From positions 27,379-91,378 of the forward strand of contig DASZPL010000135.1 of NCBI GenBank assembly GCA_035550315.1: a stretch of DNA of 64,000 bases, given 5' to 3'. Positions 47,462 to 63,500 of this stretch are shown piece by piece (the first letter of the stretch is position 1; every line of letters starts with the position of its first letter). The position numbers were made by a program, and so were the translations under genes. The DNA comes from Mycobacteriales bacterium (GTDB lineage: Bacteria; Actinomycetota; Actinomycetes; JAFAQI01). The notes beneath the pieces were generated by a model. That model was not told the origin of the DNA. It ran no database searches and was given only the letters and a program-made list of their open reading frames with translations.

Positions 47462-48531
47462 GTCGTCGGCCCCGGTTGCCGATCGACCCGGCTGATGGTG
47501 AGCAGGCCGCCGGCGGCAGCGACGGCGATAGCGAGTGCGACAGCGATCAGCCACCACGTCACGTGCCACTTGTCGTGCGTCACGGTCGTCGTCGAGGCTG
47601 CGGCCGGCTGTCCCGCCACCTGCGGTGGGGCGGCGTTGTCGGACCCCTGGCTCGTTGCCCGGGCAGCGGATCCCGGCCTCGGGTTGCTGCCACCGCCCGC
47701 CGGGCTCGTCCCGGTTGCCGCCCCGGGCGCGGCCGAGGGCCCGCCGGCCGTTGTTCCTGCCGGCGAGTTGTTCCCCGCCTTGGCCGCGGACCCGGATGTC
47801 GACGTCGCCGCGGTCGACGTGCCGGTGCTCGGCTCGAAGTGCCCGACGAGGTGCCATGAGCCAGTGAACTTGTCGAACGGTCCGCCGACCACCTGACTCG
47901 TCCAGTGCAAGGTAAAGGCGCCGGTCGCGGCGTCGTACGTCCCGGTGGCGGGTCGGGTGTTTCCGGGATAGCTCCCGTCCGGCTTCGGGGCGCCCTGGTT
48001 GAAGTACTGGTTGTTCCAGGACACCGAGAACGAGCGGAGATCCGCCGTCAGTGTCCCGCCGTGGTCGGTGACGGTCGGCGCCGGCACTTTGGTCTTGGTC
48101 TGCGGGTCGATCGGGTTTGTGGCGGTCGCGAACGACGTCCCCTCGAACTGCGCCGGGGCGGTGATGCGCTGCGCCCGGGCGTTGCCGGACGAGTCGAACG
48201 GCGGGGACGGCGTCGGTTGGTAGGACCCGATGCGCAGGCCACCGTCGGATCCTCCGGACAGCGGGGTATAGGCCTGATCGCTGCACTGAGAGTCGCTGTT
48301 CGACATGTAAGGACCGCTCGCCGATCCACTCGGCAGGATCATCTGCAGGTACGTCCCGGAAACCTGGCCGTGCGTGCACGTTCCTGGAGTGAGCACCAAC
48401 GTCCCGGTGAGCTTGCTCGCGGCGGACGCGGGTTGCGCGTGCCAGAGCCCGCCGGCGCAAGTCGCTGCCAGCAGGGCGGGCAGGAGCAGGGCCGCCGCGC
48501 CACTTCTGCGGCGAAGAGCAATGCCAGTCAT
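47458..48531 (-). CDS. secreted 2-Cys domain protein, paralogue 1 (signal peptide, conserved domain, low-complexity linker, C-terminal TM anchor)
   Basis: ATG 48531 gives MTGIALRRRSGAAALLLPALLA... with a signal peptide. The ~190-aa domain is shared with 49618, 62532 and 63497. The tail is STAGP-rich and ends in the TM helix WWLIAVALAIAVAAAGGLL. Confidence 0.7.
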   Translation of the reverse strand: MTGIALRRRSGAAALLLPALLAATCAGGLWHAQPASAASKLTGTLVLTPGTCTHGQVSGTYLQMILPSGSASGPYMSNSDSQCSDQAYTPLSGGSDGGLRIGSYQPTPSPPFDSSGNARAQRITAPAQFEGTSFATATNPIDPQTKTKVPAPTVTDHGGTLTADLRSFSVSWNNQYFNQGAPKPDGSYPGNTRPATGTYDAATGAFTLHWTSQVVGGPFDKFTGSWHLVGHFEPSTGTSTAATSTSGSAAKAGNNSPAGTTAGGPSAAPGAATGTSPAGGGSNPRPGSAARATSQGSDNAAPPQVAGQPAAASTTTVTHDKWHVTWWLIAVALAIAVAAAGGLLTISRVDRQPGPTT

Positions 48532-48555
48532 GGGTCTGCGATCCGCCTGAGTCGT

Positions 48556-48631
48556 TGTTATCTCTCGATGGACTATCATAATCTACTAAAGTAAGTTACA
48601 CCACTAATGACCTAGGCAGCGATACCCGGGA
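48556..48631. promoter_or_regulatory. AT-rich divergent intergenic region between the 48531(-) and 48632(+) operons
   Basis: TGTTATCTCTCGATGGACTATCATAATCTACTAAAGTAAGTTACACCACTAATGACCTAGG stands out against the GC-rich background. It lies between two divergently transcribed genes. Confidence 0.5.
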
Positions 48632-49621
48632 GTGGGCTTGGGCGCCAACGGATCGGCCACGCACCGCGTTCGGCGATGGGCACTAGTTGCCTGCGCGGTG
48701 CTGGGGCTCGCGCTGGCAACGGCCCCGGTCGCCTTCGACATGTTCGCCCGTGCTCCGAAGGGCGCCGTGATGATGGACGACTTCAAGCCCTTCATGACCG
48801 CGCAGCGACTCGACGGCTACCAGGGCGATATCGCCTCGATCGGTCGCGCGGTGCATGAGGTCGACACGACCGTGAAGAGCCGGCTGCGATCACACGGCCG
48901 ATCACTACCGGGGAGCTATCGCCGGTTGAGCGACCGATGGCCGCAGATCAACGCAACCATGCGCCGGCTGTTGGACCGGGTACAGGCAAATCTCGGCAAC
49001 CATCGCGCCGTCGCTGCCCTGCCGAGCTTCCGACTGTTTCCGTGGTTCTTCGTCATTCCGGGTGTGCTGATCCTCCTCGTCGCCGCGGCCGCGCTGCTCC
49101 GCTGGCTGCCGCTGACGGGCGCCCGCATCGGGCTCGGCGTACTGGGCCTAGGACTCGTGCTCGCCCCGGTGGCGTTCCAGATGTTCACGCGCGCGCCGCA
49201 AGGCGCGCGGATGATGTCGGCGTTCCGCACGATCGAGACCACTTCGAACGTGCAGCGGATCCAGGGCTACTTCTCGACCATGGCTGTCGGTCAGGGGGCG
49301 GTGCGCATCGATGTCGTTCCCGCCCTGACGCGAACCGGACTGACCGCGCAGCAGGTCGACCGGCGATACCCGGCAACCGCGCACCTCGATGCGCAGTGGG
49401 TCCACATCCTCAACGACATGACGCCGATGATCGGCGCGATGAGCGACAGCGTGCCGCGCTACCAGGCGATCTCGGCGCTGCCCTCCTTCACGCTCTTCCC
49501 GTGGTTTTTCCTGATCCCGGGCGTTTTCACCGGTGCACTCGCCTGCTGGGCACGACGACGAGCGATCACAACCGAAGAACCGCTCGAAGCAAAGACGCCC
49601 GAACCGGAGGGAGCTCGATGA
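48632..49621 (+). CDS. internally duplicated membrane protein (unknown family)
   Basis: 329 aa built from two homologous halves. Each half is TM, then APVAF(D/Q)MF(A/T)RAP(K/Q)GA.MM, then ~100 aa, then ALPSF.LFPWFF.IPGV (TM). Confidence 0.65.
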   Translation: MGLGANGSATHRVRRWALVACAVLGLALATAPVAFDMFARAPKGAVMMDDFKPFMTAQRLDGYQGDIASIGRAVHEVDTTVKSRLRSHGRSLPGSYRRLSDRWPQINATMRRLLDRVQANLGNHRAVAALPSFRLFPWFFVIPGVLILLVAAAALLRWLPLTGARIGLGVLGLGLVLAPVAFQMFTRAPQGARMMSAFRTIETTSNVQRIQGYFSTMAVGQGAVRIDVVPALTRTGLTAQQVDRRYPATAHLDAQWVHILNDMTPMIGAMSDSVPRYQAISALPSFTLFPWFFLIPGVFTGALACWARRRAITTEEPLEAKTPEPEGAR

Positions 49622-50337
49622 CCCGGCCACGCACGTTGTCTTTGTTCGCCGCAGTCGCCGCCGTCGTCGCGACTGCGGCGGCATGCGGCGGCTCGGGAAG
49701 TTCGTCCGGTGACAGTCAGAGCGCCGGATCCGGCAAGCCGCTCGTCGGGACGTTTCGACTGACACCCGGCAAGTGCACATCTGGCGCGCCGACCGGCTCC
49801 TACTTCCGCATGATCGAGCCGCATGGCACGCTCGCGCATGGCAAGTTCTTCGACAATCCCGACTCCACCTGCAAGGACAAGTCCTTCACGGTGCAGGCGC
49901 CCGGCGCGGATGGTGGGCTGGAGACCGGTCGGTACCAGCCGAGCCCGGCGACTCCCTTCGACGCAACCGGCAACTCCCGCGCCCACCTCATCACGAAGCC
50001 CGGCACGTTCACTGCGATCCGGTTCGGCATCGAGACGAACCGAGTGGATCCGCAAACCCATCACGCGGTTCCACCGCCGCGGATCGTTGACACCGCCGGC
50101 AAGCTCTCCGGCCAGGTGGAGGCCTGGTCGGCATCCTGGAACAACCAGTACTTCAACCAGGGCTCGCCGAAGCCGGACGGCAGTCGACCGGGACTCACAT
50201 TGCCGGTGCGAGGGACATACGACGCGCGCACGGGCGCGTTCGTCCTGACCTGGGCAAGTCAGGTCGTCGGTGGCCCGTTCAACGGCTTCACCGGCTACTG
50301 GCACCTGCAGGGCCACTTCGTTGCGGCGCGGCGCTAG
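49618..50337 (+). CDS. 2-Cys domain lipoprotein, paralogue 2
   Basis: ATGA overlap with the upstream stop. Lipobox ATAAAC. The domain aligns by eye along its whole length with paralogue 1 (GTFRLTPGKC..GSYFRM..C.., WNNQYFNQG.PKPDG, GTYDA.TGAF.L.W.SQVVGGPF..FTG.WHL.GHF). Confidence 0.75.
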   Translation: MTRPRTLSLFAAVAAVVATAAACGGSGSSSGDSQSAGSGKPLVGTFRLTPGKCTSGAPTGSYFRMIEPHGTLAHGKFFDNPDSTCKDKSFTVQAPGADGGLETGRYQPSPATPFDATGNSRAHLITKPGTFTAIRFGIETNRVDPQTHHAVPPPRIVDTAGKLSGQVEAWSASWNNQYFNQGSPKPDGSRPGLTLPVRGTYDARTGAFVLTWASQVVGGPFNGFTGYWHLQGHFVAARR

Positions 50338-50820
50338 ATGCGCATCTCAGCAAAGTCCGACAACGCGGTGCGCGCGATGGCGGAGCTGGCCGCCGCGGGT
50401 GACGGCGCCCTGGTCCGGGCCGAGGACATCGCGGCGGCCCAGGGGATTCCTGTGACCTTCCTTCTCGGCATCCTCCGCGAGTTGCGGGTTGCGCACCTCG
50501 TGCGGAGCTATCGGGGTCGCGGCGCCGGCTTCGCGCTCGCGCGCTCACCTGAGGCGATCACCATCGCCGATGTCATTCGCGCCGTCGATGGCCCGCTGGC
50601 AAATGTCCGCGGCCTGAGTCCGGACGAGCTGACCTACCGCGGGTCCGCCGCGCCACTACGTGAGGTGTGGTTTGCCGTCCGCGGAAGCCTGCGCGAGGTG
50701 CTCGAGCAGGTCACGCTCGCCGACCTCGTGCGCACCGAGCTGCCCGCGAACGTGAGGTTCTGGGCAGCGCGTTACACCGCCGAGCAGGTGGAACGCGGAT
50801 GGACCGCGAGCGTTTCCTGA
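50338..50820 (+). CDS. Rrf2 family transcriptional regulator (no cysteines)
   Basis: Carries MRISAKSDNAVRAMAELA......V.AEDIA.AQGIP..FL..IL.EL..A.LV.S.RG..GG..LAR....I...DVIRAVDGPL. The ATG follows the preceding TAG directly. Confidence 0.85.
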   Translation: MRISAKSDNAVRAMAELAAAGDGALVRAEDIAAAQGIPVTFLLGILRELRVAHLVRSYRGRGAGFALARSPEAITIADVIRAVDGPLANVRGLSPDELTYRGSAAPLREVWFAVRGSLREVLEQVTLADLVRTELPANVRFWAARYTAEQVERGWTASVS

Positions 50821-50842
50821 CGGCTACGACGAGCGGTGACCG

Positions 50843-51052
50843 TTACGCCGCGCTCGGCGCGTCGCCGTGCGCGAGGTGCAAGTAACGCAGCGACTGCTCG
50901 ATGTGGCGCCGCTGGGCGACCTGCTCGGCGGCAGCGGCAGCTGCGAGCGCGGCATTCCGGATGCTGTGCCGCTGCAGGCCGAGGAGCCGGTCGACGGTGA
51001 TCGCCGACCGATGCCAGGCGGCGACGGCGAGGCTGGAGAGTTGTCCGGTCAT
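50843..51052 (-). CDS. small hypothetical protein
   Basis: 69 aa starting at ATG 51052, 4 nt after the upstream stop. G/C-biased third positions; no motif. Confidence 0.4.
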   Translation of the reverse strand: MTGQLSSLAVAAWHRSAITVDRLLGLQRHSIRNAALAAAAAAEQVAQRRHIEQSLRYLHLAHGDAPSAA

Positions 51053-51056
51053 GGCC

Positions 51057-51641
51057 TCACGCTCCGAGGGACTGTGGCGTGGTGTGGCGCAACGCCGCAA
51101 CGTGACGGACGAACTGCTCGATCTGACCGATGGCGCGGACGGTCATGGCCGCGTTCACCGGCTGTCGCCGATCGGCGGGCAGGGCAGGCAGCCGCAGCTG
51201 CGGGTGGCTGTGGGCGGACCGGCGCAACGAGTTGGCCGTTGACTGCGCCACCGGCCGCACGGGCGGGCGGCCGGCCAAGATGATCCCGTCGCAGGCCTGC
51301 GGCGAGCGCCATGCGATCGAGGAGGCGACGAAGCCGCCGAACCCGTGGCCGGCGAAGATCGTCGGTAGCCCCTGGCGGGTCGCCAGTTCGACCAGCCGCT
51401 CGCCGGCAGCGAGCAGCTGGTCGAATGGCGGTTGGTCGAACGGGTCGGCGTGGTCGGCGACGTCTGCAGTGCATCCCGCCGCCCACACGATGGTGTCTCG
51501 CGCGCTGAGTGCTTCAGCAAGCTCCTGGTATTGCTCAGGCTCCTCGCCGGCGCCCGGGAACAGCACAAGCGCAGCGATCGGTTGGGCGGCACGCCACCGA
51601 CGGAAGTGGATGGGCCGCCCGACGGCGCTGGGGAGCAGCAT
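51057..51641 (-). CDS. alpha/beta-hydrolase-fold-like protein lacking the nucleophile serine
   Basis: ATG 51641 with a GAGGAGG SD. ALVLFPGAGEEPEQY... and the nucleophile-elbow position reads GHGFGG instead of GHSxGG. Confidence 0.55.
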   Translation of the reverse strand: MLLPSAVGRPIHFRRWRAAQPIAALVLFPGAGEEPEQYQELAEALSARDTIVWAAGCTADVADHADPFDQPPFDQLLAAGERLVELATRQGLPTIFAGHGFGGFVASSIAWRSPQACDGIILAGRPPVRPVAQSTANSLRRSAHSHPQLRLPALPADRRQPVNAAMTVRAIGQIEQFVRHVAALRHTTPQSLGA

Positions 51642-51719
51642 TGTCGCCTCCTCGGGATATGACGCGAGCTGTGTGGGTCCCAGCCTGTCCGCACCGGCTG
51701 ACAATGTCAAGTAAATCAA

Positions 51720-53126
51720 TCAAGTTAATGTAGTGATTCCGAGGCGGACGGCGGTGTCGAAGGGTTGGTTGACCAGCACGACGCCAGCTTCGCGGGCGTT
51801 GAGCAGCGACGCGGCAACCGCGGCGCGGAAGCCGCCGCCGCAGTACACCCAGATGCCGCGCGCTGACGGCGGTACACCGGAACGCCGGTCGCTGTCGACG
51901 ATCTCGGCCAGGTCGGGCAATGCGAAGTGACGTGCCCCGACCACGTGACCGGCCTGGTACTCCTGCTCGCTGCGGACGTCGAGCACGATCGGTTCGGCTC
52001 GCTGTCGCTCCTCCGCCAAGTCGGCGAACCGCCGGACCGAGTAACTACGGAGTCGCTCACGGTCACCGCCCGACCACTGGTCGGGAGACCCGAGCATCAT
52101 TCCGAGCGGTCGGTCGATCCCGACTTGAACGAGTTGACGCTGCGCGGTCGCAACCTCGCTGTCGCTGCCGAGCAGCACGACTCCGGCGCCGGCCGGGAGG
52201 ATCCACGGCAGGTACGCGACGAGCGGACCGCTCGCCTCGATATTGATCGAGCCGGCAAGATGCTGGCCGGCAAAAGCCACCCGATCGCGCACATCGACCA
52301 GCCAGTGGCCGGCGGCAGCCAATGCGATGAGGTCTTTCGGTTCAAGCGGCTTCGGCGGATCGAGGACGACCGGTGTCGGGCCGATTGCGTTGTGGAGCGG
52401 GAGGCGCCCGTAGTGGCGGGGGATCGGTCCGTAGCCTGCGATGAGCGCGTCGACAAAGTCTTGCTCCGGCGTCAGCAGGGCCGGGTTGACGAGGCACTCT
52501 TCGGCCAGCGTTGCTGACGCGGTCTCGCCGGCGACATCGGCCGAGCAGAACGACCCGAAGCCGTGGGTCGGCAGCAGCAACGTGTCGGGGGGCAGCTCGT
52601 CGACGAGCCGGCGCACGGACCGCCACTGGGCGTGTGCCAGCTCGACGGTCTGCGCTGAACCGTAGAGGTCCGTCCGTCCGACCGAGCCGTTCAGCAATGC
52701 CCCACCCGTGCAAACGGCGACGGGCCCGTTGGCGGCTTCGATGACCAGGGCAACATGGTGCGGGGTGTGACCGGGCGTCGCGAGCGCACGCAGTGCGAGG
52801 CCGCCGGCGGCGTAGGTCACGCCTTCCGTGGCCGGCGTGAAGCCGAATCTCGGGTCCGGGTCACCCGGCGGCACGACATAGGTGGCGCGGTGGCGGCGCG
52901 ACAGCTCCAGCCCGCCGGACACGTAGTCCGCATGCCGATGGGTTTCGGCGACCAACTCGATCCGGGCATCGTGGCGTTCGGCGACCGCTTCGATCCGGTC
53001 GATGTCCCGTGGAGGATCGACCACCAATGCGGTCGATCCCTCCGTGATGACATAGGTCCGGTTGCCGAGGCACGGATTCGCCAATGACTCAATCTGCACG
53101 GGAGCAGCCTTTCCGCCGGCAGGCAA
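51720..53126 (-). CDS. persulfide dioxygenase (MBL fold) fused to tandem rhodanese domains (CstB-like)
   Basis: MBL motif ETHRHADYVSGG, then ATPGHTPHH and LPTHG. Two rhodanese modules follow, the last with the active-site loop CGGGFRAA. GTG 53099 is an alternative start. Confidence 0.75.
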   Translation of the reverse strand: MPAGGKAAPVQIESLANPCLGNRTYVITEGSTALVVDPPRDIDRIEAVAERHDARIELVAETHRHADYVSGGLELSRRHRATYVVPPGDPDPRFGFTPATEGVTYAAGGLALRALATPGHTPHHVALVIEAANGPVAVCTGGALLNGSVGRTDLYGSAQTVELAHAQWRSVRRLVDELPPDTLLLPTHGFGSFCSADVAGETASATLAEECLVNPALLTPEQDFVDALIAGYGPIPRHYGRLPLHNAIGPTPVVLDPPKPLEPKDLIALAAAGHWLVDVRDRVAFAGQHLAGSINIEASGPLVAYLPWILPAGAGVVLLGSDSEVATAQRQLVQVGIDRPLGMMLGSPDQWSGGDRERLRSYSVRRFADLAEERQRAEPIVLDVRSEQEYQAGHVVGARHFALPDLAEIVDSDRRSGVPPSARGIWVYCGGGFRAAVAASLLNAREAGVVLVNQPFDTAVRLGITTLT

Positions 53127-53145
53127 GGTCGATAGAGTTAGTGAT

Positions 53146-55809
53146 GTGATCCTACAAAGTTCAGCGACTAAGTCGAGTTATGTGGTGGTGGGCGCTGGTG
53201 CCGCCGGGACCCTGACTGCGACTCGGCTGTTGGACGAAGCCGGCCGAGCACATCGACCTGTCGATGTCACATTGGTCGACCCGCGGGACAGCGATGGCCG
53301 TGGCGTGGCGTTTTCGACAGGCGACGTACGTCACCTGCTCAACGTGCCGGCCGCGAAGATGTCGGCGTACTCGGAAGACCCGCAGCACTTCATGGCTTGG
53401 CTATCGGCACATGGCCGTCCGGTCGGCGAGGCCGACTTCGTGCCGCGAGTCTGGTACGGCGACTATCTTTCCGACGTCCTGGCAGACGCTGCGCGTCGGG
53501 CCCCGTGGGCACGGCTGCGGCGGGTCCGGGCGCGCGCCGCCGACCTGACGCGTCTCGGCCATCGATGTCAGGTCGTGCTCGAGACCGGCGATCGACTGAT
53601 CGCGGACACCGTGATCCTCGCCATCGGCCATCTCGGGGTGAACCTCGGCTGGGCGCCGGAGGAACTGCGCACTTCGCCTGCCCTGATCGCCGATCCCTGG
53701 CAGCCGGATGCGTTGACCGCCGTGCCGGCCGACGGCGACGTGCTCCTTGTCGGGACGGGTTTGACGATGGTCGACGCGTACCTCGTGGTGCAGCGCCCCG
53801 GGCGGGTGGTGCACGCCGTCTCCCGGCATGGTGAGCTACCGCGTAGCCACCGCACCGCTCTGTTGCCGGCGATGGAGGCCCCTGAGTTCTCTGTCGCGAC
53901 GCCGTCGCTCGCAGAGCTTCGGGAAGTGATGCGATCCCACATGGCGAAAGCCAAGGCCCGTTACGGCGACTGGCGGCCGGCGGTCGACAGCATCCGACCG
54001 ATCACGCAGCGCCTTTGGGCCGGCCTCGATGACGCTGATCGGGCAGAGTTCGCCGCGCTGGACGCGCGTGCCTGGGACGCCCTCCGGCATCGGGTTCCGC
54101 CCGCCAGCGCTTCCGTGATCGCCGATGCGCGCCAGGCTGGCGTCCTTCGCACCCACCGCGGCCGGGTCCTCAGCGCCCATCCCAACGGCGTCGGATTGGC
54201 CGTCACCCTCTCAACCGGCGAGACGGTTTCGGTCGGCGCTGTGGTCAACTGCACCGGCCCGTGCGATCGCCCGGCCGACAGCCCGGACCCATTCATCGGC
54301 CGTCTCCTCGAGCGTGGGCTGGCCCGTCCAGGAGCGCTCGGCATCGGTTTCGAAGCAGCCGGTGACGGTCGGGTGCTACCGAGGTCGGGTTCGTCACTGT
54401 CGATCTGGACGCTCGGGGCGCTCCGGAAGGGCGCGCTGTGGGAGTCGACCGCGATTCCCGAGATTCGGGACCAGGCAGCGGCGCTAGCACGCTGTCTTTT
54501 CCGCGAGTCGCGCACCGCGGCCCGCCCGGTCGACCCCTACGGCCTGCCGCTGTCAACCACGGCCGCGGCGGCGGCCGCATGGTGTCGCGCGATCAACGCT
54601 GTTCGCCGAGTGCAGGCCCACGCGGTTGAGGCGCTCGCCGAAGCAATCGAAGCGGACCCGGACTTTGCCCTTGGCCACGCGGCGATGGCCTTGCTCGGTC
54701 ACGAGTGGGATCTTCCCGTCGATCGAACGGATTGCTTGCGACGGTCAGTCGAAGCTGTCCGTTTCCGCGGCGATGCACGGGAGCGCAGCTTCGTCCACAT
54801 GGTGCGCAGCCGCCTCACCGGTCCGGTGGCCAGCGGAGACCGCGAGCTGCGCCGCCACATTGCGGCGCACCCGCGCGACTGCCTTGCGGTGAGTATCGCG
54901 CTGCCGACGATCGCGTTCAGCGGGTTGTCGCAGCCGGTGGAGGCGGCGTGGCAGCTCGTCGATGAGCTCACCCCGGCGTACGGAGACGACTGGTGGTTCC
55001 TCGGTATTCGTGCGTTCAGTCGTCAGGAGCAGGAGCGCTGGGCCGAGGCCGAATCGCTCGCCAGCCGGGCACTCGACGGCGACCCCGCGGCCGGGCACGC
55101 GGCTCATGCCCGCACCCACGTCTGCTACGAGACCGGCGCGCACGAATCCGGCCTGCAATGGCTGGACGGGTGGATTGCGGCACACGGGTCGGCGGCAAAC
55201 TTTCGCGCGCACTACTCGTGGCATGCCGCGTTGCACGAGCTTGCTCTCGATGACCTTGCCGCCGCGCGCGACCGGTTCGCCACCCAGCTGTCTCCGGCGG
55301 CGGTCACCGGCGCGCGGGCGCTGATCGACTCCGTCTCGCTGCTGTGGCGCCTGCGCCTGCTCGACGCGTGGCCGGGCGACCTTCCGGTCGCCCCACTGCT
55401 CGAAACGGTTGATGAGTGTGTCTTTGATCGCCCGACGACGCCGTTCGCGGCCTTGCACGCAATCGTCGGGATGGCGGCGGCGGCCGACATTGCCGGGCTC
55501 GAACGGCTCCGTCACTACCTCGACCGGCAACCGCAGCCGGTGTTTCGAGACGTATTGGCCACGCTATGTGCAGGGTTCGCGGCGGTCGCGGCCGCGCGAC
55601 CGCGCGACGGCATCCGTCCGTTGACCGATGTGTTGCCTCACCTTCGCCAGCTCGGCGGCAGTGTCGCCCAGCAAGAAGTCGTCGTCGAGACCTTGCTCTA
55701 CGCATTGACTGCTGCGGGGGAAGCGCGGTTGGCACGCGAGTTGCTTGCCGAGCGGCTGCGCCGGCGCGAATCGCCGTTGGACCGTCGCCGGCTCGCGACG
55801 CTGAGCTGA
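53146..55809 (+). CDS. YdhS-like FAD/NAD(P)-binding protein fused to a TTC38-like TPR domain
   Basis: The N-terminal ~460 aa carry YVVVGAGAAGT and a second LLVGTGLTMVD nucleotide-binding motif. The C-terminal ~410 aa (from ~54520) track the TTC38 family by eye: GLPLSTT, ADPDFALGHA, H..THVCYE, AHYSWHAALHEL, IDSVSLLWRL, LGGS.AQQ.V. Start set at GTG 53146; the track start at 53062 lies inside the divergent gene. Confidence 0.7.
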   Translation: MILQSSATKSSYVVVGAGAAGTLTATRLLDEAGRAHRPVDVTLVDPRDSDGRGVAFSTGDVRHLLNVPAAKMSAYSEDPQHFMAWLSAHGRPVGEADFVPRVWYGDYLSDVLADAARRAPWARLRRVRARAADLTRLGHRCQVVLETGDRLIADTVILAIGHLGVNLGWAPEELRTSPALIADPWQPDALTAVPADGDVLLVGTGLTMVDAYLVVQRPGRVVHAVSRHGELPRSHRTALLPAMEAPEFSVATPSLAELREVMRSHMAKAKARYGDWRPAVDSIRPITQRLWAGLDDADRAEFAALDARAWDALRHRVPPASASVIADARQAGVLRTHRGRVLSAHPNGVGLAVTLSTGETVSVGAVVNCTGPCDRPADSPDPFIGRLLERGLARPGALGIGFEAAGDGRVLPRSGSSLSIWTLGALRKGALWESTAIPEIRDQAAALARCLFRESRTAARPVDPYGLPLSTTAAAAAAWCRAINAVRRVQAHAVEALAEAIEADPDFALGHAAMALLGHEWDLPVDRTDCLRRSVEAVRFRGDARERSFVHMVRSRLTGPVASGDRELRRHIAAHPRDCLAVSIALPTIAFSGLSQPVEAAWQLVDELTPAYGDDWWFLGIRAFSRQEQERWAEAESLASRALDGDPAAGHAAHARTHVCYETGAHESGLQWLDGWIAAHGSAANFRAHYSWHAALHELALDDLAAARDRFATQLSPAAVTGARALIDSVSLLWRLRLLDAWPGDLPVAPLLETVDECVFDRPTTPFAALHAIVGMAAAADIAGLERLRHYLDRQPQPVFRDVLATLCAGFAAVAAARPRDGIRPLTDVLPHLRQLGGSVAQQEVVVETLLYALTAAGEARLARELLAERLRRRESPLDRRRLATLS

Positions 55810-55888
55810 TCGGGGGCGGCCTGTCGCGCAGATCACATTTGCGCGCGGCACCTGCGTTGGCGCCCCGCGCCCCATCGTGATATACGTT

Positions 55889-55915
55889 CTAAACGACCTA
55901 AGTTGAGTGGTTTAG
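55889..55915. promoter_or_regulatory. CTAAAC-N15-GTTTAG inverted repeat upstream of the SBP56-like gene
   Basis: Perfect 6-bp arms at 55889-55894 and 55910-55915 sit inside an AT-rich patch (55878-55925), ~35 nt upstream of the ATG at 55951. Confidence 0.5.
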
Positions 55916-55950
55916 TGCATATAGGCCATACGCCACCAGGAGGATGGGGA

Positions 55951-58374
55951 ATGCGGCTCGGCTCACGGACCAGGCGGAGCGTCATCATCGCGGCGGCCCT
56001 CGCGGTCGTCGCCTCGACTGGCACTGCCGTTGCAGCGTCGACGCAGCAATCAACTGGCGCCAACAGTTTGCTGCCGACCGTCACGAGGACGATCTCGAAA
56101 ATCTCGACCGGCGTGGGCAAGGTGACGGAGAGCATCAACTACACCGTCAACGCCGACCCGCAGTCGCGTGCGGACGCAACCGACAGCTATGGCAATCCGC
56201 TTGAGGGCCTGTCCCTGAAGGGTCTGCCCAGCCTGCCGGGCCTGGGCGCGAAGCTGCCGCTCGAGGACGGCAACAACCCCGACCTCGACAACGAGCCGTC
56301 CGGTGGTGCCTCGTGCCCGCCCGCCGGCAAGGGCCACGAGTACATGATCGTGTGGGCCGGCAAGATGAACGCGGCCGACCTGACCGGCAGCGACGTTGTC
56401 GATCTGCTGAACGGCGGCGAGGTCAACCCGGAGGGCCTCGCGTCTGAGATTCCCATCGAGTTCGGTGAGACCGGCTCGGACATGATGGTCACGATCGACG
56501 CCGAGCCCGGGTGTAACACCTACGGCAAGGTGGTCAACGTCTCGGTGATCACTGGTCCCGACGGCATCGAGAACGAGCCGCACCACATGCAGTACACCTG
56601 GTATCCGAACCAGACGGTCTGGGCCGGCGGTCTGTTCACATCACGGCTGTTCACGTTCGATCTGTCGAACCTGCCGCAGGTGACGCTGCAGAAGATCGAC
56701 GAGCCGTGGGCCACGCCGAGCGGGAGTATTTGGGACGCCTTTGCGACCCTGCCTAACGGCGACGCCTACGGCACGTTGATGGGCGGCCCGCTCTACGCGT
56801 ACGGCACGACGCCCGGCGCCGTCGTCGAGATTGCCGGCAACGACCACCCGGGCGCCAAGCCCGGCGACATCCTCGGTGAGTGGCCCGCCGACGCGCCGAA
56901 CAAGCTCGTCGACGGACTGAACTCGAACGGATCGGCCGCGGGCGCACTGCTGCAATCGCTCGGCCAGACCGTGACCAACGTCCCGAATCTCATCAACAGC
57001 ACCAACTGCCCGCCGCCGAACTCGAACGACGGCCGGAAGCGGGCCGGATGCGACACCGGCCTGAACCTCAAGACCGGGTCTGGCATCACCAAGTGCCCCG
57101 ATTTCGGCAGCTGCGCCAACCCGCACGGTGTCCAAGTGCGCGCCGACCTGAAGACGTTGGTCACCTCGGACTACGCCGAGCCGGCGCAGATCATCGAAGA
57201 CCCGATCAAGCCGTCGAGCGCGAACTACTTCCGGCGGACGGTCCGAGTCTGGAGCTTGGGCAACCAAGGGTGCTCCGGCAACAAGACGCCGGGCGCCTCG
57301 CTGAATCACCCCGAGATCTGTGCGGTCGACGTCATGCCACAGGGACCGCGTGACGACGCCAACCCGGCGCACGCGGAAAACATGGGAATCATGGAGAACG
57401 GCGCTACCTGGGACTACCCCTTGCCCGACGGCCGGATCCCGAAGGGGTGGTTCTCGGAAAGCATGTGTGGCGGCGCGGTCTTCTACACGCCGGACATCAC
57501 CGACACCAAGGACCACCCCTGGCACGAGGTCTTCGACTCGACCGCCGCCGCGAACGCGCTGCATAACGGCGGCGCCGGACGCAACGCACCCGGCGGCAAC
57601 AACGGCAAGACCCCGCTGAATGAGCCAGCCGGCTGCGACGGCGCCGCATGGGACGTCGTGAGTCCGGACAACCGGTTCCTCGGTCACGCCGTGAACGGCC
57701 GGTTTGTCCTGCAGGACGACTTCGACGACGCCGGCTCGCCGAAGATGGTCTACACCCTCAGCATCACGAAGCTGCTCGAAGCCGGCGACAGCTACAAGTG
57801 CGACCTCTCGGACAACGTCCGTGCGCTTGCCGACCCGACCCTCGGGGGCAAGGACTGCCCGACCGTCGTCGGTGTGGTCCCGATCAACGACCCGACCTCC
57901 GGCGGTCCGCACTGGGCCGAGTTCGACAACTTCCGGCTCGCCGCGGTCAAGATCAAGGATCCGAAGACCGGAAAGATTGTCACCGACTATCACGCCCCGA
58001 CCCGGATCGCGGAAGCCAACTACTTCGTCGCGCGCACCGGCGTCGACGGCAACCACACGGTCTGCATGATCAACATGAACCCGAAGACCGGCTCGCTGTC
58101 GCTGGACACCAGCTTCATCGACGAGACCGAGGGCACGCCCTGTGTCCAGTTCAACCGTCGTGACTGGCCGGACCCGAACATCAAGGGGTTCTACAAGCCG
58201 CACTCGATGCTGTTCGTCGAGAACGGCGCGCCCGCTACGGGCTATACGCCGTACGGCCACGACTACGGCCCGAACTGCCAGTTCGGCAAGGTCGTCGACG
58301 GCGAATGCCATGGCTACTGGGGCGAGCCGATCGACATGGGAGCCGATACCGCCGGCCTCCCGTACGAGGAGTGA
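55951..58374 (+). CDS. expanded selenium-binding-protein (SBP56)/methanethiol-oxidase-like secreted protein
   Basis: ATG 55951 with a GGAGGA SD. The signal peptide has a twin arginine (SRTRRSVIIAAALAV). Colinear by-eye matches to SBP56: MMVTIDAEPGCNTYGKVV..NEPHHMQYTW (cf. LATVDVDPKSPQY..VIH..ELHHSGWN), SRLFTFDL, HGVQVRADLKTLVTSDYAEP, SPDNRFL, GGPHW. At 807 aa it is far longer than the ~470 aa I recall for the family. Confidence 0.6.
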   Translation: MRLGSRTRRSVIIAAALAVVASTGTAVAASTQQSTGANSLLPTVTRTISKISTGVGKVTESINYTVNADPQSRADATDSYGNPLEGLSLKGLPSLPGLGAKLPLEDGNNPDLDNEPSGGASCPPAGKGHEYMIVWAGKMNAADLTGSDVVDLLNGGEVNPEGLASEIPIEFGETGSDMMVTIDAEPGCNTYGKVVNVSVITGPDGIENEPHHMQYTWYPNQTVWAGGLFTSRLFTFDLSNLPQVTLQKIDEPWATPSGSIWDAFATLPNGDAYGTLMGGPLYAYGTTPGAVVEIAGNDHPGAKPGDILGEWPADAPNKLVDGLNSNGSAAGALLQSLGQTVTNVPNLINSTNCPPPNSNDGRKRAGCDTGLNLKTGSGITKCPDFGSCANPHGVQVRADLKTLVTSDYAEPAQIIEDPIKPSSANYFRRTVRVWSLGNQGCSGNKTPGASLNHPEICAVDVMPQGPRDDANPAHAENMGIMENGATWDYPLPDGRIPKGWFSESMCGGAVFYTPDITDTKDHPWHEVFDSTAAANALHNGGAGRNAPGGNNGKTPLNEPAGCDGAAWDVVSPDNRFLGHAVNGRFVLQDDFDDAGSPKMVYTLSITKLLEAGDSYKCDLSDNVRALADPTLGGKDCPTVVGVVPINDPTSGGPHWAEFDNFRLAAVKIKDPKTGKIVTDYHAPTRIAEANYFVARTGVDGNHTVCMINMNPKTGSLSLDTSFIDETEGTPCVQFNRRDWPDPNIKGFYKPHSMLFVENGAPATGYTPYGHDYGPNCQFGKVVDGECHGYWGEPIDMGADTAGLPYEE

Positions 58375-61178
58375 CGGCGGGCCGCCCGCCGCGCCGGAGC
58401 CTGCGATTGCTCCGGCGCGGCGGAACGGTCGCAGTGCTGGCCGGGGGGCTTGCCGTCGGCATCGCGAGTCCGGCGTCTGCGCATCCCTACCTGCTGCGCA
58501 GCGATCCGGTAGCAGGTGCCGTGCTGCCTGCTACCCCCAGCGAGATCCACATCTTCTACACCGAGGGTCTCGACCGGCCGTACTGCTCGGTCACGATCGT
58601 GACGCCTGCCGGTCAGGACATCACCACTCGACAGGTCGCTGCCGGACAGCCGACCGAGCTCGCCGTCGCGCCCACCCGGTCGCTGACCGCGACCGGCACG
58701 TACGCGGTTGAGTGGACGGCGGTCGGCGATGACGGCCACACCGTCATCGGCAACTTCGGTTTCAGCGTGGGGCATCCGACGAGCAACTCGGCGGTTGGGT
58801 CAACGGTTGGCACGACGACCGGCAGCGCAAGCGGTCAAGCCGGCCTGCAGCGACTGCTGCGGACCGTGCAGCCGATCGCCACTGTCATCTTCGCGGGATT
58901 CTTGTTACTCGCCGGCGCCATAGCCGCTGCTCGGCGCCGGGCCGTGCGCGCTCGTGCCATCAGTTTCGCGGTGCACTGCGGCGTCGTGCTTGCGTTGTGC
59001 GGCGCGGCCGTGGCCGATGGCGGATGGACCGCATTTGCCGGCTCCGAGCTCGGGCATCGGCTTCTCGTCGCGCTCGGACTCAGCCTGTTGGCCGTCGGCG
59101 TGGTTGTCGATCGGGGCGCCCTGGCCGCCGGGCGAGCACCGGCCGGCTGGCGGCGCTACGCCGGCCCGGCTCTCGCTGCTGGCCTGCTCGTCGTCCTCGC
59201 CATGTCCGGGCATGCCGACAGTCAGCCCGAGAGCCGGCGGGCACTGGCGATCGTGGTCTATTCGGTGCATCTCGTCGCAGTGAGCGTCTGGATCGGAGCG
59301 CTGGTTGCGGTGCTCCTGCGGCTGCGACCCGGACGGGACATTGCGCTGACCGACTCATCGGTGCGGCGGTTGCGCGGAGTCGTCGTGGTCTCGCTCCTAG
59401 CCGTGCTGGGAACCGGGCTTGCGACGACCGACTGGGGACTGCGGTCGCTGTCCGATGTGCTGCACACGACGTACGGCGCGCTTGCCATCACCAAGCTGTC
59501 GCTGTTCGGCGTCATCGTCGTTCTCGGTGGCGCCGCGGCCTGGTCCCGGACGCGTGGCCATCGCCGTCGGGTTGGCTCGATGTTGTTTGCCGCAGAGGGA
59601 ACGGTTGCCGTCGCGACGTTGGTGGTGGCCGGAGCCCTCGGCCAGATTGCGCAGCCGCTCGATCAGCCCTACGCCTCGCAGGCCTACGCCAGCGCCGCCG
59701 GGCTGCCGGTCGCCGTTGCTGCTGACGGGTCCGATTCGCTCGTTGTCGGGGCATTGGCACCCGGGATCGTCGGTGACAACACCCTCGTCGTCGAGGTTGG
59801 AGACGCCGACGAGGATGACTTTCTGAGCCCGGCGCCGGACGTGCGCTCCGTTCGTGCGACGTTGAGCTGTGGTTGCGGAGTAGCTGATCGCGACGTACGG
59901 CTGCAGCCGACCGGCGGTGGTGCCGAGTGGACCGGCGACGTGGATCTGCCGGCGGCCGCATCGTGGTTGGTCACGGCCCACGTGCGACGGTCGAACGGCT
60001 CGCCGGTCACGGTGCGGCTGCCGGAGCAGGTCGACCGGCCTGACCTGCCCGACCAGGTGGTAGTCGGAGTGCCGACGTCGTTGTCGGGGCGCACGGGCGA
60101 GACCTGCCGGGACGAGACCCTCGGCCTCCAGGTCGCGCTGGCCGACGTGAACTCGACGGCCGCCGATCACGGCGCGCTCGTCCGGGTGGTGGCGGTCGAT
60201 CTGCACGACGGCGTTGCCTCGGCGATCGCCCGGCTGCGGCGGCTTGGCGCGGCCGTCTTGGCCATGCCATGCGGGAGTCAGCAGCAGCTCAGTCGCATCG
60301 AGCGCGGCGCGGATGCGGCGGGCCTGCCAGTGGTGACCGGCGCGGCGACCACCGCGACCGATGCCGCTACCTGGTCGATGCAACCGGACTGGCGCTCGGA
60401 GGGAGCCGCAATCGGTCAGCAGGCCGTTCGGCAAGGGGGCCGCGTCGTGACGGCCGTCGTCGGTCGCACCGCAGTCGACCGCATGGAGGTCGCCGGCTTG
60501 CGCAGCGCGTTGGCGGACACCTCGGTGCGGCTGCGGACGAGCGTGCTGCCCGATCGGCCGGTGCGCTGGGTCCGGTCGCTCGAGCAGACTCGCACCGACC
60601 TGGTCGCGGTCCTGGCCGACCGCGAGGAAGCGCTGCCGCTGACCCACGCCTTCTCGAAGGTCGTCGCCGACGCGGGATGGCTGCCCTCGCACGGAATCGT
60701 GGCGTCCAGCCAGTTGATGAGCACCGACTTCATCAACGCCGCGGGGGACATCACCCGACTCGGCGCGATCGAGTTCGCGAGTGACATCAACCCATTCGAC
60801 CCGGTCTCGCAGTACTACGCCGAGCGGTTGCGGGCGCTCGAGCCCGGCTTGCGTCCCAGCTTTGACGGGCTGCACGGCTACGAAGGAGGCCTTGTGATCA
60901 GCTCCGCCCTACGCGACGGAGGCGGCCGTCCGTCGGCAGCGCAGCTGACCGGGCTGCTCGGCCGACGCTTCACGGACTTCGCGGTCGGCAGTTACCGCGT
61001 CGGGTGGCGTCCGACCGGCGGCACCTCGACATCGATCGCCTTCTTCCGGTCGACGTACATCAACCCGATGGCGCTGCCGGCCGATACGCCGGGTGGCGCC
61101 TCCTCGCTCGCTCACGAGGGCACGTTCCTCGACACCGGCGGGTTCGAGCAGGTCGCGCCGTTCCGGACGATCTCATGA
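58371..61178 (+). CDS. CopC-CopD-YtkA-like-periplasmic-binding-protein (type 1) fusion
   Basis: GTGA overlap with the upstream stop. Signal peptide ASA|HPYLLRSDP, with a CopC domain ending DDGHTVIGNFGFSV. A multi-TM CopD-like region follows, then an Ig-like segment (GDNTLVVEV...WTGDVDL...WLVTAHV), then a ~370-aa LivJ/PBP1-like C-terminal domain. Confidence 0.65.
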   Translation: MTAGRPPRRSLRLLRRGGTVAVLAGGLAVGIASPASAHPYLLRSDPVAGAVLPATPSEIHIFYTEGLDRPYCSVTIVTPAGQDITTRQVAAGQPTELAVAPTRSLTATGTYAVEWTAVGDDGHTVIGNFGFSVGHPTSNSAVGSTVGTTTGSASGQAGLQRLLRTVQPIATVIFAGFLLLAGAIAAARRRAVRARAISFAVHCGVVLALCGAAVADGGWTAFAGSELGHRLLVALGLSLLAVGVVVDRGALAAGRAPAGWRRYAGPALAAGLLVVLAMSGHADSQPESRRALAIVVYSVHLVAVSVWIGALVAVLLRLRPGRDIALTDSSVRRLRGVVVVSLLAVLGTGLATTDWGLRSLSDVLHTTYGALAITKLSLFGVIVVLGGAAAWSRTRGHRRRVGSMLFAAEGTVAVATLVVAGALGQIAQPLDQPYASQAYASAAGLPVAVAADGSDSLVVGALAPGIVGDNTLVVEVGDADEDDFLSPAPDVRSVRATLSCGCGVADRDVRLQPTGGGAEWTGDVDLPAAASWLVTAHVRRSNGSPVTVRLPEQVDRPDLPDQVVVGVPTSLSGRTGETCRDETLGLQVALADVNSTAADHGALVRVVAVDLHDGVASAIARLRRLGAAVLAMPCGSQQQLSRIERGADAAGLPVVTGAATTATDAATWSMQPDWRSEGAAIGQQAVRQGGRVVTAVVGRTAVDRMEVAGLRSALADTSVRLRTSVLPDRPVRWVRSLEQTRTDLVAVLADREEALPLTHAFSKVVADAGWLPSHGIVASSQLMSTDFINAAGDITRLGAIEFASDINPFDPVSQYYAERLRALEPGLRPSFDGLHGYEGGLVISSALRDGGGRPSAAQLTGLLGRRFTDFAVGSYRVGWRPTGGTSTSIAFFRSTYINPMALPADTPGGASSLAHEGTFLDTGGFEQVAPFRTIS

Positions 61179-61882
61179 CAGGTCGCAGGCTCCGACGGCC
61201 CGCTGATGCGGCCTTGACTGCGGTCTTGCTCTCGGCACTCGCGCTCGGCCTGACCGGCTGCGGCGGGGGGAGCGCCGATAGCTCCGGCGGCGTGTCGTCG
61301 GCAGCGAGCCCGACCCCGATTAGCTCGCTCCGCGAATCCGGCGACACGCCGCCGGTCCCGCCCGGCTGCACGAGTGCGGCGTTGCCCGCGGTCTATCGGG
61401 AGGACGGTCGGCACAGCGGCGCCTTGTCGGCGACTGCCTACAGCTCATCCGCCGACGTCCAGGCAGCGCTGCTCTACGACCAGTACCAATCCGGTCTGCG
61501 AGCCGTGTTCACCAGGACGGCGCCGGCGCCCCGCACTCGGATCACCGGCGTTGTCAGCTGTGTCGCCATGCACTTTCCGACGACCGAGCAAGCCGCCCGT
61601 TTCTTCTCGTCGTACCGGTATCTGCGCAAACAAGCGGGTCGGCTCGCCCGGCGGTTGCCGATCGGGGCGTCGCTCGGAAGTGCGACGCGGTCGGCGGCGT
61701 ACCTCGAGCGACGGCAGTCGTTTCGCGGCTACCACATCGCGTCGACCGACGTCGCCGAGGTTGCGGCGCAATCCGGCAGCACGTTGTGGATCGCGTCGGT
61801 GGCGGCGCGACAACCTTCGGTCAGCCTCGCCAGGTCCCTGCTCGTTTCGATGCTGCGTGCGGACGCAAGAGGTGCCTCGTGA
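61175..61882 (+). CDS. lipoprotein, unknown function
   Basis: ATGA overlap with the upstream stop. Lipobox LGLTGC. 235 aa, no motif recognised. Confidence 0.6.
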   Translation: MTGRRLRRPADAALTAVLLSALALGLTGCGGGSADSSGGVSSAASPTPISSLRESGDTPPVPPGCTSAALPAVYREDGRHSGALSATAYSSSADVQAALLYDQYQSGLRAVFTRTAPAPRTRITGVVSCVAMHFPTTEQAARFFSSYRYLRKQAGRLARRLPIGASLGSATRSAAYLERRQSFRGYHIASTDVAEVAAQSGSTLWIASVAARQPSVSLARSLLVSMLRADARGAS

Positions 61883-62529
61883 CCGCGCGTAGCCGATGGG
61901 CGGCTGCCCTGCTCGTGGTGAGCATTGCCACCGCGACCGGATGCCACTCGCGCACGGTCACGGATGCCGGCATTGAGCGAACGCCGACCGGTACGACGAG
62001 TGCGGCAACTGCGCCCCCCGGTTCGGCAGCTCCGGGTCGGGGGAGGGCGGCGTACACCGCGCGACAGCTCGTCGACGACGGCTTGCCATCCAAGATTGGC
62101 CCGGGAGCCCTGACAAAGCCACAGGTCAAGCAGCTGATGCAGTACTTCGAGAACAAGGTGGCGCACGCCTACGCGACGGGCCGGAGCGATTCGCTGACGC
62201 ACTATCTCGCCGGCCCGATGCTCAGCGGCAACCGAGCGACGATCCAGCTGCTGGCGGCGAAGCACAAGCGCAACGTCTTCCACATCGATGTCGTGGCCGT
62301 GCACTTGCAGGCCAACGAAGCAACGCGCCTGGTTTTCGCTATGACCGGCGACATGACGTCGAACTACTTCGTTGACACCGCGACCGGTCGGGTGCTCGAC
62401 CACGGCCTGCCTGGACCGTCGCAGGTCAAGTTCCTGATCTTCCTCGACCAGAATCCCGCCACCCGCACGTGGTACTGGACCGGCGAGCAGTCGCAGGCCG
62501 CTGCGGACAACGCCACTGGGAGCGGGTGA
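61879..62529 (+). CDS. lipoprotein, unknown function
   Basis: GTGA overlap with the upstream stop. Lipobox ATATGC. 216 aa, no recognisable catalytic motif. Confidence 0.6.
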   Translation: MTARSRWAAALLVVSIATATGCHSRTVTDAGIERTPTGTTSAATAPPGSAAPGRGRAAYTARQLVDDGLPSKIGPGALTKPQVKQLMQYFENKVAHAYATGRSDSLTHYLAGPMLSGNRATIQLLAAKHKRNVFHIDVVAVHLQANEATRLVFAMTGDMTSNYFVDTATGRVLDHGLPGPSQVKFLIFLDQNPATRTWYWTGEQSQAAADNATGSG

Positions 62530-62531
62530 CG

Positions 62532-63500
62532 ATGCGTGGCAGCGCCGTTCGGTTCGTCGCCGCCGGGGTGTTGGCGGCGAGCCTCCTGCTGGTTGTCGGA
62601 TCCGTCGCGCCGGCAGCCGCCGGCTCACCGCCGGCGGCTCAGCAGTTGCGCGGGACCTTCCGGCTGGAGCGCGCGTCGTGCACCCGCGGCCACCCGTCGG
62701 GCAGCTACGTCACGGTGACGTACGGCACCCGATCGATCGCGAACCCGCAGTCCGGCTGCGACCGGGGGGTCTACACGTTGTTGCAACCTGGCCGCCGTGG
62801 TCTCTCGACCGAGCGGTTCAGCCCGCTCGACGACCTGACCTTCGACGGCGGTGGCGACCCGCACGGCGGCGGCATCGCCCGGACGGTCGGGTTCCGCGGC
62901 CACCGGCTCTCGTTGGTCACGTCCCCGCGGGACCTTCAGGCGGCCCCTACCGGACCAGCCGTGTTTGCCCCGCCGACCATCTATCTCATCGGCCATCGGC
63001 TGGTCGGTGACGTCCGGTCGGTGCAGGCGCTGTACGACGGACGGCCCGGCTCCTCCTGTGTGACCGCCGCTGGGGCCGGCTGCTGGCTGGTCGGGGCCGA
63101 GCGGGCGACGGGCAGCTTCAACCCGACGACGCGCCGGTTCTCGTTGCAGTGGTTCAGCGGCCAGTCCTTCGTCGGCTCGTCGGCCGGCACGGTGGTCCAC
63201 CTCGCCGGGCGCTTTTACGGTGTCGGTCGGCCGGTGCCCCAGGGTCGGACCGTCGATCTCGGGACGCAGAGCTTTGCCGCCGGATCGCCCCCGCCGCGCT
63301 CGGCCGTGGTCACGTCCGGCAAGCCGCGGCGCCACCGGGCGGCTCCTCGCCACCGGCGGACCGCGGGCCCGGCCACGGCCGCCGGTCGCGACGACACCGC
63401 CGGCCGGCCGGGATGGCCCGAGTCCGCGGCCGAGGTGCTGCTCGCACTCAACGGTGTCGCCTCGGTTGGCGTGCTGGCGCGACGAAGGAGGACCCGGTGA
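62532..63500 (+). CDS. secreted 2-Cys domain protein, paralogue 3 (divergent), with basic/Pro-rich tail and possible C-terminal anchor
   Basis: Signal peptide present. LRGTFRLERASCTRGHPSGSYVTV....PQSGCDRGVYTLLQPG and ...SLQWFSG...VHLAGRF align with paralogues 1 and 2. GTG 62526 (GTGA overlap) is an alternative start. Confidence 0.6.
   Translation: MRGSAVRFVAAGVLAASLLLVVGSVAPAAAGSPPAAQQLRGTFRLERASCTRGHPSGSYVTVTYGTRSIANPQSGCDRGVYTLLQPGRRGLSTERFSPLDDLTFDGGGDPHGGGIARTVGFRGHRLSLVTSPRDLQAAPTGPAVFAPPTIYLIGHRLVGDVRSVQALYDGRPGSSCVTAAGAGCWLVGAERATGSFNPTTRRFSLQWFSGQSFVGSSAGTVVHLAGRFYGVGRPVPQGRTVDLGTQSFAAGSPPPRSAVVTSGKPRRHRAAPRHRRTAGPATAAGRDDTAGRPGWPESAAEVLLALNGVASVGVLARRRRTR

Follow-up and report, generated by a model that had tools for sequence, protein, structure and literature searches.

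A 64,000-nucleotide stretch of genomic DNA from a Mycobacteriales bacterium (here called the window; contig DASZPL010000135.1, positions 27,379 to 91,378, with all coordinates below counted from its first letter) encodes an exported 807-aa beta-propeller protein and, overlapping it downstream, a CopC-CopD-type membrane protein, a gene pair that recurs in nearly all related loci. We give about even odds to the following reading: the propeller, exported and of the SBP56 superfamily, would be a copper redox enzyme that uses a new set of ligands; it would be metalated by its dedicated CopC/CopD-type partner, would act on a reduced sulfur compound and would pass its product to rhodanese- and flavin-dependent cytoplasmic proteins or to YeeE-type import. 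This reading is built on homology, predicted fold, conserved residues, operon structure and co-occurrence, from which we infer copper binding, activity, substrate and the flow between the modules. An initial annotation of the same DNA had proposed a methanethiol and sulfide oxidation island made up of an SBP56-family enzyme, a CopC-CopD fusion, a CstB-like persulfide dioxygenase, a flavoprotein and an Rrf2 regulator. All five genes were recovered at their positions; the observation was partly confirmed and its interpretation partly supported.

The copper partner is the strongest finding of the analysis. Relatives of the propeller were found at 452 loci, counting one representative genome per species, and are carried by soil Actinomycetota, Chloroflexota and Dormibacterota. 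Among the fetched loci, 67 reach far enough downstream, and in 64 of these a homologous partner gene lies directly 3' of the propeller gene on the same strand; the pairing of the SBP-like with the CopD-type gene is more than chance. In the window, the GTG start of the partner (58371) overlaps the TGA stop of the propeller gene (58372-58374), making the translational coupling assumed in the initial annotation plausible.

The partner consists of four parts, namely the CopC and CopD domains already recognized and two extracytoplasmic domains that had been missed. Its CopC domain (PF04234) scored 59.7 bits against a cut-off of 23.3. His60 comes directly after the ASA cleavage site and is matched in the alignment to the first residue of the mature chains of 1M42 and 9C14; together with D143 and H145 it forms a predicted Cu(II) site whose ligands are conserved in 14 partner proteins. 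The CopD domain remained below the cut-off in Pfam (18.9 versus 32.1 bits) and also in NCBIfam (CopD, E=8.5e-11); H303 and H322 are conserved in this CopD-like transmembrane domain, and the orthologue at related locus L085 carries precomputed CopD and Peripla_BP_6 matches. The middle domain bears a CxC motif, and the C-terminal part of about 390 residues resembles type-I periplasmic-binding proteins (PBP; Peripla_BP_6, E=1.3e-5). No YtkA domain was detected in the partner. Partners with a CopC domain occur in Actinomycetota close to the window, Chloroflexota, Dormibacterota and Solirubrobacterales, those lacking it in Pseudonocardiales and related groups. The CopC-less proteins share homology with the window partner in three regions, CopD, PBP-like and middle (hhalign 99.5%, E=2e-22). 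Showing this required profile-profile comparison, since BLASTP of the window partner against the Carbonactinospora partner (L083) was not significant and Pfam returned nothing.

The 807-aa protein is exported and its signal peptide contains the twin-arginine-like sequence TRRSVII. It shows 100% identity to a protein at NCBI from a metagenome-assembled genome of an uncultured Mycobacteriales bacterium. The public NCBI gene call (P0001, 753 aa) begins 54 codons later and thereby loses the signal peptide; we favour the 807-aa start because a Shine-Dalgarno sequence (AGGAGG, 7 nt 5' of the ATG) and full-length relatives support it. Against the NCBIfam MtoX equivalog NF052453 the protein reached 37.7 bits (E=8e-10; cut-off 650), a match below cut-off and confined to residues 191-274, equivalent to profile positions 35-114 of 408. 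A phmmer search with the 807-aa protein returned nothing from the PDB sequences, and the family profile gave a weak match to 2ECE only. The Pfam SBP56 model PF05694 (gathering score 34 bits) was matched at E<=0.01 by 17 of 30 family members, the best at 2.3e-7, and hhalign of the family profile against 21 MtoX sequences, a set seeded with the R. pomeroyi gene from its megaplasmid, gave 97% probability (E=1.2e-10). Furthermore, an exhaustive profile search uncovered a bridging clade of 436-470 aa proteins whose matches to the family profile range from 1e-25 to 1e-62 and which also exceed the Pfam SBP56 gathering score (38-59.5 bits); this provides transitive links via P0405, P0467 and P0464. 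Concordantly, the best PDB match of the AlphaFold2 (AF2) model in Foldseek was S. tokodaii SBP56 (2ECE; E=5.5e-14, TM(target) 0.71), six orders of magnitude ahead of any other fold match. Thiocyanate dehydrogenase (TcDH) and N2O reductase were absent from the PDB sequence matches at E<=1 and from the 50 best Foldseek matches. We regard it as solid, from sequence profiles and model, that the protein is a member of the SBP56 superfamily with a predicted seven-bladed beta-propeller. By the same comparisons it is not an MtoX orthologue, and homology does not carry over the substrate. Databases name the family proteins 'hypothetical' or 'selenium-binding family protein'.

In MtoX, His88, His89, His141 and His424 (R. 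pomeroyi numbering) are putative copper ligands, and Trp223 and Trp386 are the proposed tryptophan tryptophylquinone (TTQ) residues, joined by a catalytic cysteine (PMC10936201, PMC5739008). This substrate-binding cysteine lies in a 'TCQSPYM' or 'GGDCS' motif (PMC10936201). Residues were mapped through an alignment that includes the bridging proteins. H211 and H212 of the propeller align with His88 and His89, and H751 with His424, so that the ligand conservation anticipated for an SBP56 protein was found at three positions; the fourth, His141, is occupied by Asp262, invariant in 118 of 118 sequences. The bridging proteins have His at this position in two cases and already Asp in a third. Trp223 aligns with Pro411, which is invariant in the family, and no conserved Cys exists in the propeller family at the aligned N-terminal position of the MtoX catalytic cysteine; the sole invariant Cys of the family is C388, within a CANPHG motif. 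Besides D262, the residues H211, H212, H392, H654 and H702 are invariant in all 118 members, even at identities as low as 34%; 117 sequences each keep C388 and H751, and 113 keep H474. H392, H654, H702 and C388 have no counterpart in MtoX. The retention of three putative copper histidines together with the addition of new invariant His and Cys residues implies a remodelled, histidine-rich active site. In the AF2 secondary structure the invariant residues stand where the equivalent strand begins in one four-strand repeat after another, and they may thus form a ring of ligands around the propeller axis.

Aerobic methanethiol oxidases are not known outside the SBP56 proteins, among which is human SELENBP1; the copper site and mechanism of these proteins are unsettled. 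The initial annotation had taken the propeller for such an enzyme, which as in MtoX or SELENBP1 would convert methanethiol to formaldehyde and sulfide or sulfane sulfur, with CopCD replacing SCO1. We hold this to be unlikely, though of all alternatives it survives best. It agrees with the superfamily and fold assignment, with the three retained histidines and with the presence of a copper partner and sulfur-handling neighbours, and a homologue occurs in Pseudonocardia sulfidoxydans (L072), a degrader of dimethyl sulfide and dimethyl disulfide. Moreover, MtoX enzymes release sulfane sulfur (PMC10936201), which would suit rhodanese-type neighbours. However, the equivalog score is a small fraction of the cut-off, the His141 and Trp223 positions are fixed as Asp and Pro, the catalytic Cys is absent, and four further invariant residues are foreign to MtoX. 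Pfam searches of the window and de novo clustering of the neighbours in 83 loci detected no SCO1, MauG, cytochrome, cytochrome c peroxidase or formaldehyde-detoxification genes, unlike in R. pomeroyi, where mauG and a formaldehyde-detoxification gene accompany mtoX. Methanethiol as the substrate of the propeller is a guess.

The near-universal pairing with a CopD-type protein, the only association of this kind in the family, also lends itself to the view that the propeller is not an enzyme and instead constitutes the extracytoplasmic metal-binding part of a system for uptake or buffering of copper (or another metal or chalcogen) around a CopD-type permease, with a CopC- or YcnI-like role where the partner has no CopC domain, as in 46 loci. 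The family is named for selenium binding and not for catalysis, and B. subtilis offers a precedent for such a hand-over of Cu(II), which YcnI is reported to pass to YcnJ (PMC12362106). Ranking just behind methanethiol oxidation, this too is improbable in our judgement: about 80 positions are invariant at 34-40% identity, many of them charged besides His, a degree of constraint that is usual for enzymes rather than binding proteins; the characterised proteins most closely related to it are oxidases; sulfur genes recur nearby; and a small cupredoxin gene (82 aa) stands at the end of two propeller operons (L085 21705-21953 and L005 21188-21430). This cupredoxin could be an electron acceptor. No cupredoxin gene was found in the window up to its end at 64000.

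Four overlapping or near-touching stop/start junctions (GTGA at 58371-58374, ATGA at 61175-61178, GTGA at 61879-61882 and TGA-cg-ATG at 62527-62534) indicate that the propeller, the CopC-CopD protein, two lipoproteins and a secreted protein form a five-gene operon. The window is of high GC composition (66-74% G+C), and its features around this operon are the following.

47458-48579, minus strand: secreted protein with C-terminal anchor (signal peptide and C-terminal transmembrane segment in the translation)
48632-49621, plus strand: membrane protein with internal duplication (only a weak SPW match in Pfam)
49606-50337, plus strand: lipoprotein, lipobox AAAC (paralogue of 62532-63500)
50338-50820, plus strand: Rrf2-family regulator (PF02082, 113.8 bits)
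51057-51719, minus strand: small alpha/beta-hydrolase abutting the MBL-rhodanese gene (Hydrolase_4, 1.2e-9)
51720-53126, minus strand: metallo-beta-lactamase (MBL) domain plus two rhodanese domains (likely start GTG 53099)
53146-55809, plus strand: PF13454 FAD/NAD(P) flavoprotein with a helical C-terminal half (longest open reading frame from 53062)
55810-55950, plus strand: lower-GC intergenic region of 141 bp (promoter/operator-like block, then AGGAGG and ATG)
55951-58374, plus strand: exported 807-aa beta-propeller, a divergent SBP56-superfamily protein
58371-61178, plus strand: CopC-CopD membrane partner (GTG start; longest open reading frame from 58305)
61175-61882, plus strand: lipoprotein, lipobox LTGC (homologues in 10-11 loci)
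61879-62529, plus strand: lipoprotein, lipobox ATGC (start overlaps the upstream stop, GTGA)
62532-63500, plus strand: secreted protein (paralogue of 49606-50337; start 2 nt past the upstream stop)

The lower-GC intergenic region preceding the propeller gene suggests that this gene has its own promoter. A non-coding block within it (55830-55930) is kept in L001-L004 and L007, though the proteins there are just 76-80% identical to the window protein. It contains TG(C/A)TATA(T/C), resembling an extended -10 element, followed by CAACnCACTCAAGTTAnGnGGGTTAG (imperfect palindrome CCCAC-N9-GTGGG), and to judge from this pattern it is probably a promoter plus operator. Farther upstream, a TGTGAC-N6-GTCAC palindrome is found in L001, L002, L003, L005 and L007 and in degenerate form in the window. 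An Rfam scan of 48-64 kb, including the conserved leader, gave no real match.

Three paralogous secreted proteins or lipoproteins without known domain flank the operon (47458-48579 on the minus strand, 49606-50337 and 62532-63500 on the plus strand); they share the motif GTF/LxLxPGxCT...SGxY, and their homologues accompany the operon in eight loci. For the lipoprotein at 49606-50337, in which Pfam recognized no domain, homologues were found in L001-L003, L005, L007, L033 and L045. The membrane protein at 48632-49621 appears from tblastn matches to co-occur with the propeller module in close relatives (50-61% identity in L001, L003, L005 and L045). A secreted protein of about 330 aa with a Pro/Ser/Thr-rich N-terminus lies near the propeller gene in 11 loci (for example L002 955-2070, L020 13438-14529 and L028 13443-14426) and is absent from the window. 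The alpha/beta-hydrolase gene at 51057-51719, which the initial annotation did not mention, has no counterpart in the related loci and is outside the conserved set. Just upstream of all these genes, 44209-46633 encodes a pyridoxal phosphate-dependent (PALP) enzyme, an MgtC-ACT protein and a DUF4395 protein, of which the PALP enzyme might belong to cysteine metabolism. We also considered a mobile island; there is no nearby tRNA gene and the GC content is just slightly lower, so that nothing supports it.

On the divergent side of the operon, the MBL-rhodanese protein aligned over its full length to 3TP9 (7e-48) and, at 2.5e-28, to 3R2U, an S. aureus chain that we take to be CstB. The architecture of an MBL domain with two rhodanese domains, for which the protein had been called a CstB-like persulfide dioxygenase, is thus borne out, and its last rhodanese retains the catalytic Cys (VYCGGGFRA aligned to VHCQSGIRS). 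Both His motifs of the 2-His-1-Asp iron site of persulfide dioxygenases are also there, but where this triad has its Asp ('SGD' motif; Asp154 in the 'GD' motif of ETHE1), the window protein has Gly ('TGG'), as do 10 of 11 related copies. The MBL-rhodanese-rhodanese subfamily with Gly for the metal-binding Asp comprises the window protein and its homologues in L001-L005, L007, L019, L020, L028 and L048, and it also has Tyr at the last His of the HxHxDH motif. These substitutions suggest a metal site or chemistry unlike that of CstB and ETHE1.

The flavoprotein matched PF13454 with 142 bits, in agreement with the FAD/NAD(P)-binding oxidoreductase domain assigned to it initially. Its AF2 model (pLDDT 90) retrieved FzmM as top Foldseek match (1.1e-16), followed by PvdA, lysine monooxygenase, SidA and DesB at 1e-11 to 2e-10. 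The N-terminal part is accordingly modelled as a class-B monooxygenase fold (N-hydroxylating or flavin-containing monooxygenase-like) with two Rossmann domains, an assignment that concerns the fold only. The C-terminal half is all-helical; some homologues match TPR_19, and JGI names them tetratricopeptide repeat (TPR) proteins. A His/Trp-rich motif in this half may resemble TTC38, which is a lead only. The N-terminal domain is fused to MBL-rhodanese in L085 (22059-22466, 935-aa product) and L021 (12905-15589), and the two are adjacent in two further genomes, which implies that the flavoprotein and the MBL-rhodanese protein work together. The idea that the FAD-TPR protein always stands beside sulfur genes was rejected, as its neighbours in Kribbella are molybdate genes, those in one Streptomyces genome being cysC, cysD and cysN.

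The Rrf2 regulator has no Cys in its translation, so that an Fe-S cluster would not be bound in the usual way, and belongs to the cluster-less type that had been proposed; it is CymR-like (NCBIfam CymR 1.6e-20, below cut-off). Loci of Pseudonocardia and Carbonactinospora carry copies with 51-55% identity at a distance of 4-5 kb from the SBP-like gene.

Across the 83 loci, whose neighbours were clustered de novo, an MBL-rhodanese gene was found beside the propeller gene in 12, the PF13454 flavoprotein in 11, the Cys-less Rrf2 in 11 and a YeeE-type Sulf_transp gene in 20. Among loci of at least 15 kb, 25 of 47 contained MBL-rhodanese or Sulf_transp. The clustering of sulfur genes with the propeller is real but looser than that of the partner, and only partial; the co-conservation expected for the whole gene set applied to the SBP-like/CopD-type pair and only in part to the sulfur genes. 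In Pseudonocardia dioxanivorans, a nitrile-hydratase-like trio (beta-N, alpha, and beta-N plus beta-C; L081 1128-2855) is encoded 7 kb 5' of the propeller gene, and its split beta subunit, seen in this one genome only, recalls thiocyanate hydrolase.

Such modest counts raise the question of whether two unrelated modules merely lie side by side, the propeller operon on the one hand and a cytoplasmic flavoprotein/MBL-rhodanese/Rrf2 set of general sulfur assimilation or detoxification on the other. The separate promoter region of the propeller gene would fit, as would the frequent occurrence of the FAD-TPR protein without a propeller, for instance next to the cys genes of the Streptomyces genome. 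Nevertheless, both deep branches of the family, one sharing about 40% and the other about 75-80% identity with the window protein, show the association. Its arrangement varies (divergent, downstream or fused), and in Pseudonocardiales the position is filled by Sulf_transp, a sulfur gene of another kind. By chance, an MBL-rhodanese gene would be expected in roughly 1% of 20-kb stretches, a figure that is an estimate and not a calculated value. Chance adjacency is in our opinion distinctly improbable, and less probable than either of the alternatives above.

Several observations weigh against the copper-enzyme reading put forward at the outset. The 807-aa protein itself did not match Pfam SBP56 (PF05694) even at E<=10 and so failed the check that the initial annotation had set for it; the initial assignment to the SBP56 family thus holds for export and for the superfamily, by profile, bridging and fold evidence, and not for the Pfam family proper. 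The AF2 propeller model is of moderate confidence (pLDDT 67, pTM 0.74). An MBL domain without the iron-binding Asp makes a persulfide dioxygenase role doubtful. Streptomyces and Kribbella, genera absent among the SBP-like matches, commonly carry the FAD-TPR protein, the Rrf2 gene is missing from the closest relatives L001-L007, and 22 of the 47 long loci have neither MBL-rhodanese nor Sulf_transp. Finally, no description of the propeller family or of the gene set was found in the literature, in keeping with the initial annotation.

Under the copper-enzyme reading, the core would be a two-protein extracytoplasmic module composed of the propeller with its remodelled metal centre and a membrane partner with outward-facing domains. 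The partner would acquire copper and pass it to the propeller, either directly on the outer face or by cytoplasmic import before Tat export. The propeller would then act as a copper redox enzyme whose substrate would be a small molecule of reduced sulfur, for instance a thiol, sulfide or polysulfide, and whose product would be sulfane sulfur or sulfide. Two neighbouring cytoplasmic proteins, the rhodanese-containing MBL protein and the flavin monooxygenase-like protein, may take over this product in the present genome, and in related lineages a YeeE-type sulfur transporter at the equivalent position may serve; the Cys-less Rrf2 protein is a candidate controller. A far more specific version, in which a putative multinuclear copper centre new for SBP56 (trinuclear or sulfide-bridged, and ring-ligated by six to seven His, Asp262 and Cys388, one per blade) would be assembled by the CopC-CopD-PBP protein and the operon lipoproteins in a dehydrogenase that passes electrons to a cupredoxin, convergent with the TcDH or CuZ centres, is highly improbable.

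The propeller family would represent a natural redesign of the SBP56 active site, with other ligands and no TTQ tryptophan at the Trp223 position, and the fused CopC-CopD protein a different maturation route for an SBP56-type protein. The family offers a testable case of CopCD proteins serving one particular cuproenzyme and a candidate for a new enzyme in the cycling of sulfur in soil; its sequences can also be compared with MtoX and SELENBP1 to decide which of their residues are important.

Among known systems, the CuZ enzyme N2O reductase shares with the propeller the seven-bladed architecture, and the approximately seven invariant His at the same strand position in successive blades may be CuZ-like, a lead only. 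N2O reductase differs in showing no sequence or ranked fold similarity, and nosDFYL genes and a CuA domain are not part of the propeller system. The TcDH cluster of Thioalkalivibrio is one of the two closest functional precedents, the other being YcnJ. Its periplasmic copper enzyme belongs to sulfur metabolism, yields sulfur and not sulfide, and is encoded together with copC and copD, the presumed source of its copper (PMC5744179). It resembles the propeller locus in that an extracytoplasmic protein is encoded beside CopC/CopD, whereas copC and copD are separate genes there, accompanied by fccAB and ABC transporter genes, and the two proteins have no detectable sequence or top-ranking fold similarity. 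S. aureus CstB, from the cst operon, shares with the window protein the MBL domain, the two rhodaneses and the C-terminal rhodanese Cys; in the window protein the iron-site Asp is Gly, and its partner is a class-B-like flavoprotein, sometimes fused to it, instead of the SQR, CstA or CstR that accompany CstB.

MtoX and SELENBP1 (SBP56, PF05694) belong with the propeller to a common superfamily with a seven-bladed propeller fold. Export by way of a twin-arginine-like signal peptide is a further shared trait, as are the His-His pair, the C-terminal His and an adjoining copper-handling gene. The propeller is about 200-370 residues longer owing to insertions and has no Pfam match; it carries Asp for His141, Pro for Trp223 and no catalytic Cys, and adds the invariant CANPH motif, H654 and H702. 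Described mtoX loci have SCO1/SenC and MauG partners (PMC5739008), which we also saw directly at the R. pomeroyi mtoX locus and which the initial annotation had named correctly. A formaldehyde dehydrogenase gene is near mtoX in R. pomeroyi and not near the propeller gene, and the position of SCO1/SenC and MauG is taken by the CopC-CopD-PBP protein, a CopCD pairing that extends across hundreds of genomes. For this partner the precedent is B. subtilis YcnJ, a CopC-CopD-YtkA importer serving cuproenzyme metalation (PMC13344008). Both have an N-terminal CopC domain fused to CopD and then an extracytoplasmic C-terminal domain, and the CopC domain of the partner matches the solved YcnJ CopC structure 9c14. 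Where YcnJ has YtkA, the partner has the CxC-bearing middle domain and the PBP-like domain of about 390 residues, and, in contrast to YcnJ, it appears dedicated to one neighbouring gene, with which it shares overlapping stop and start codons.

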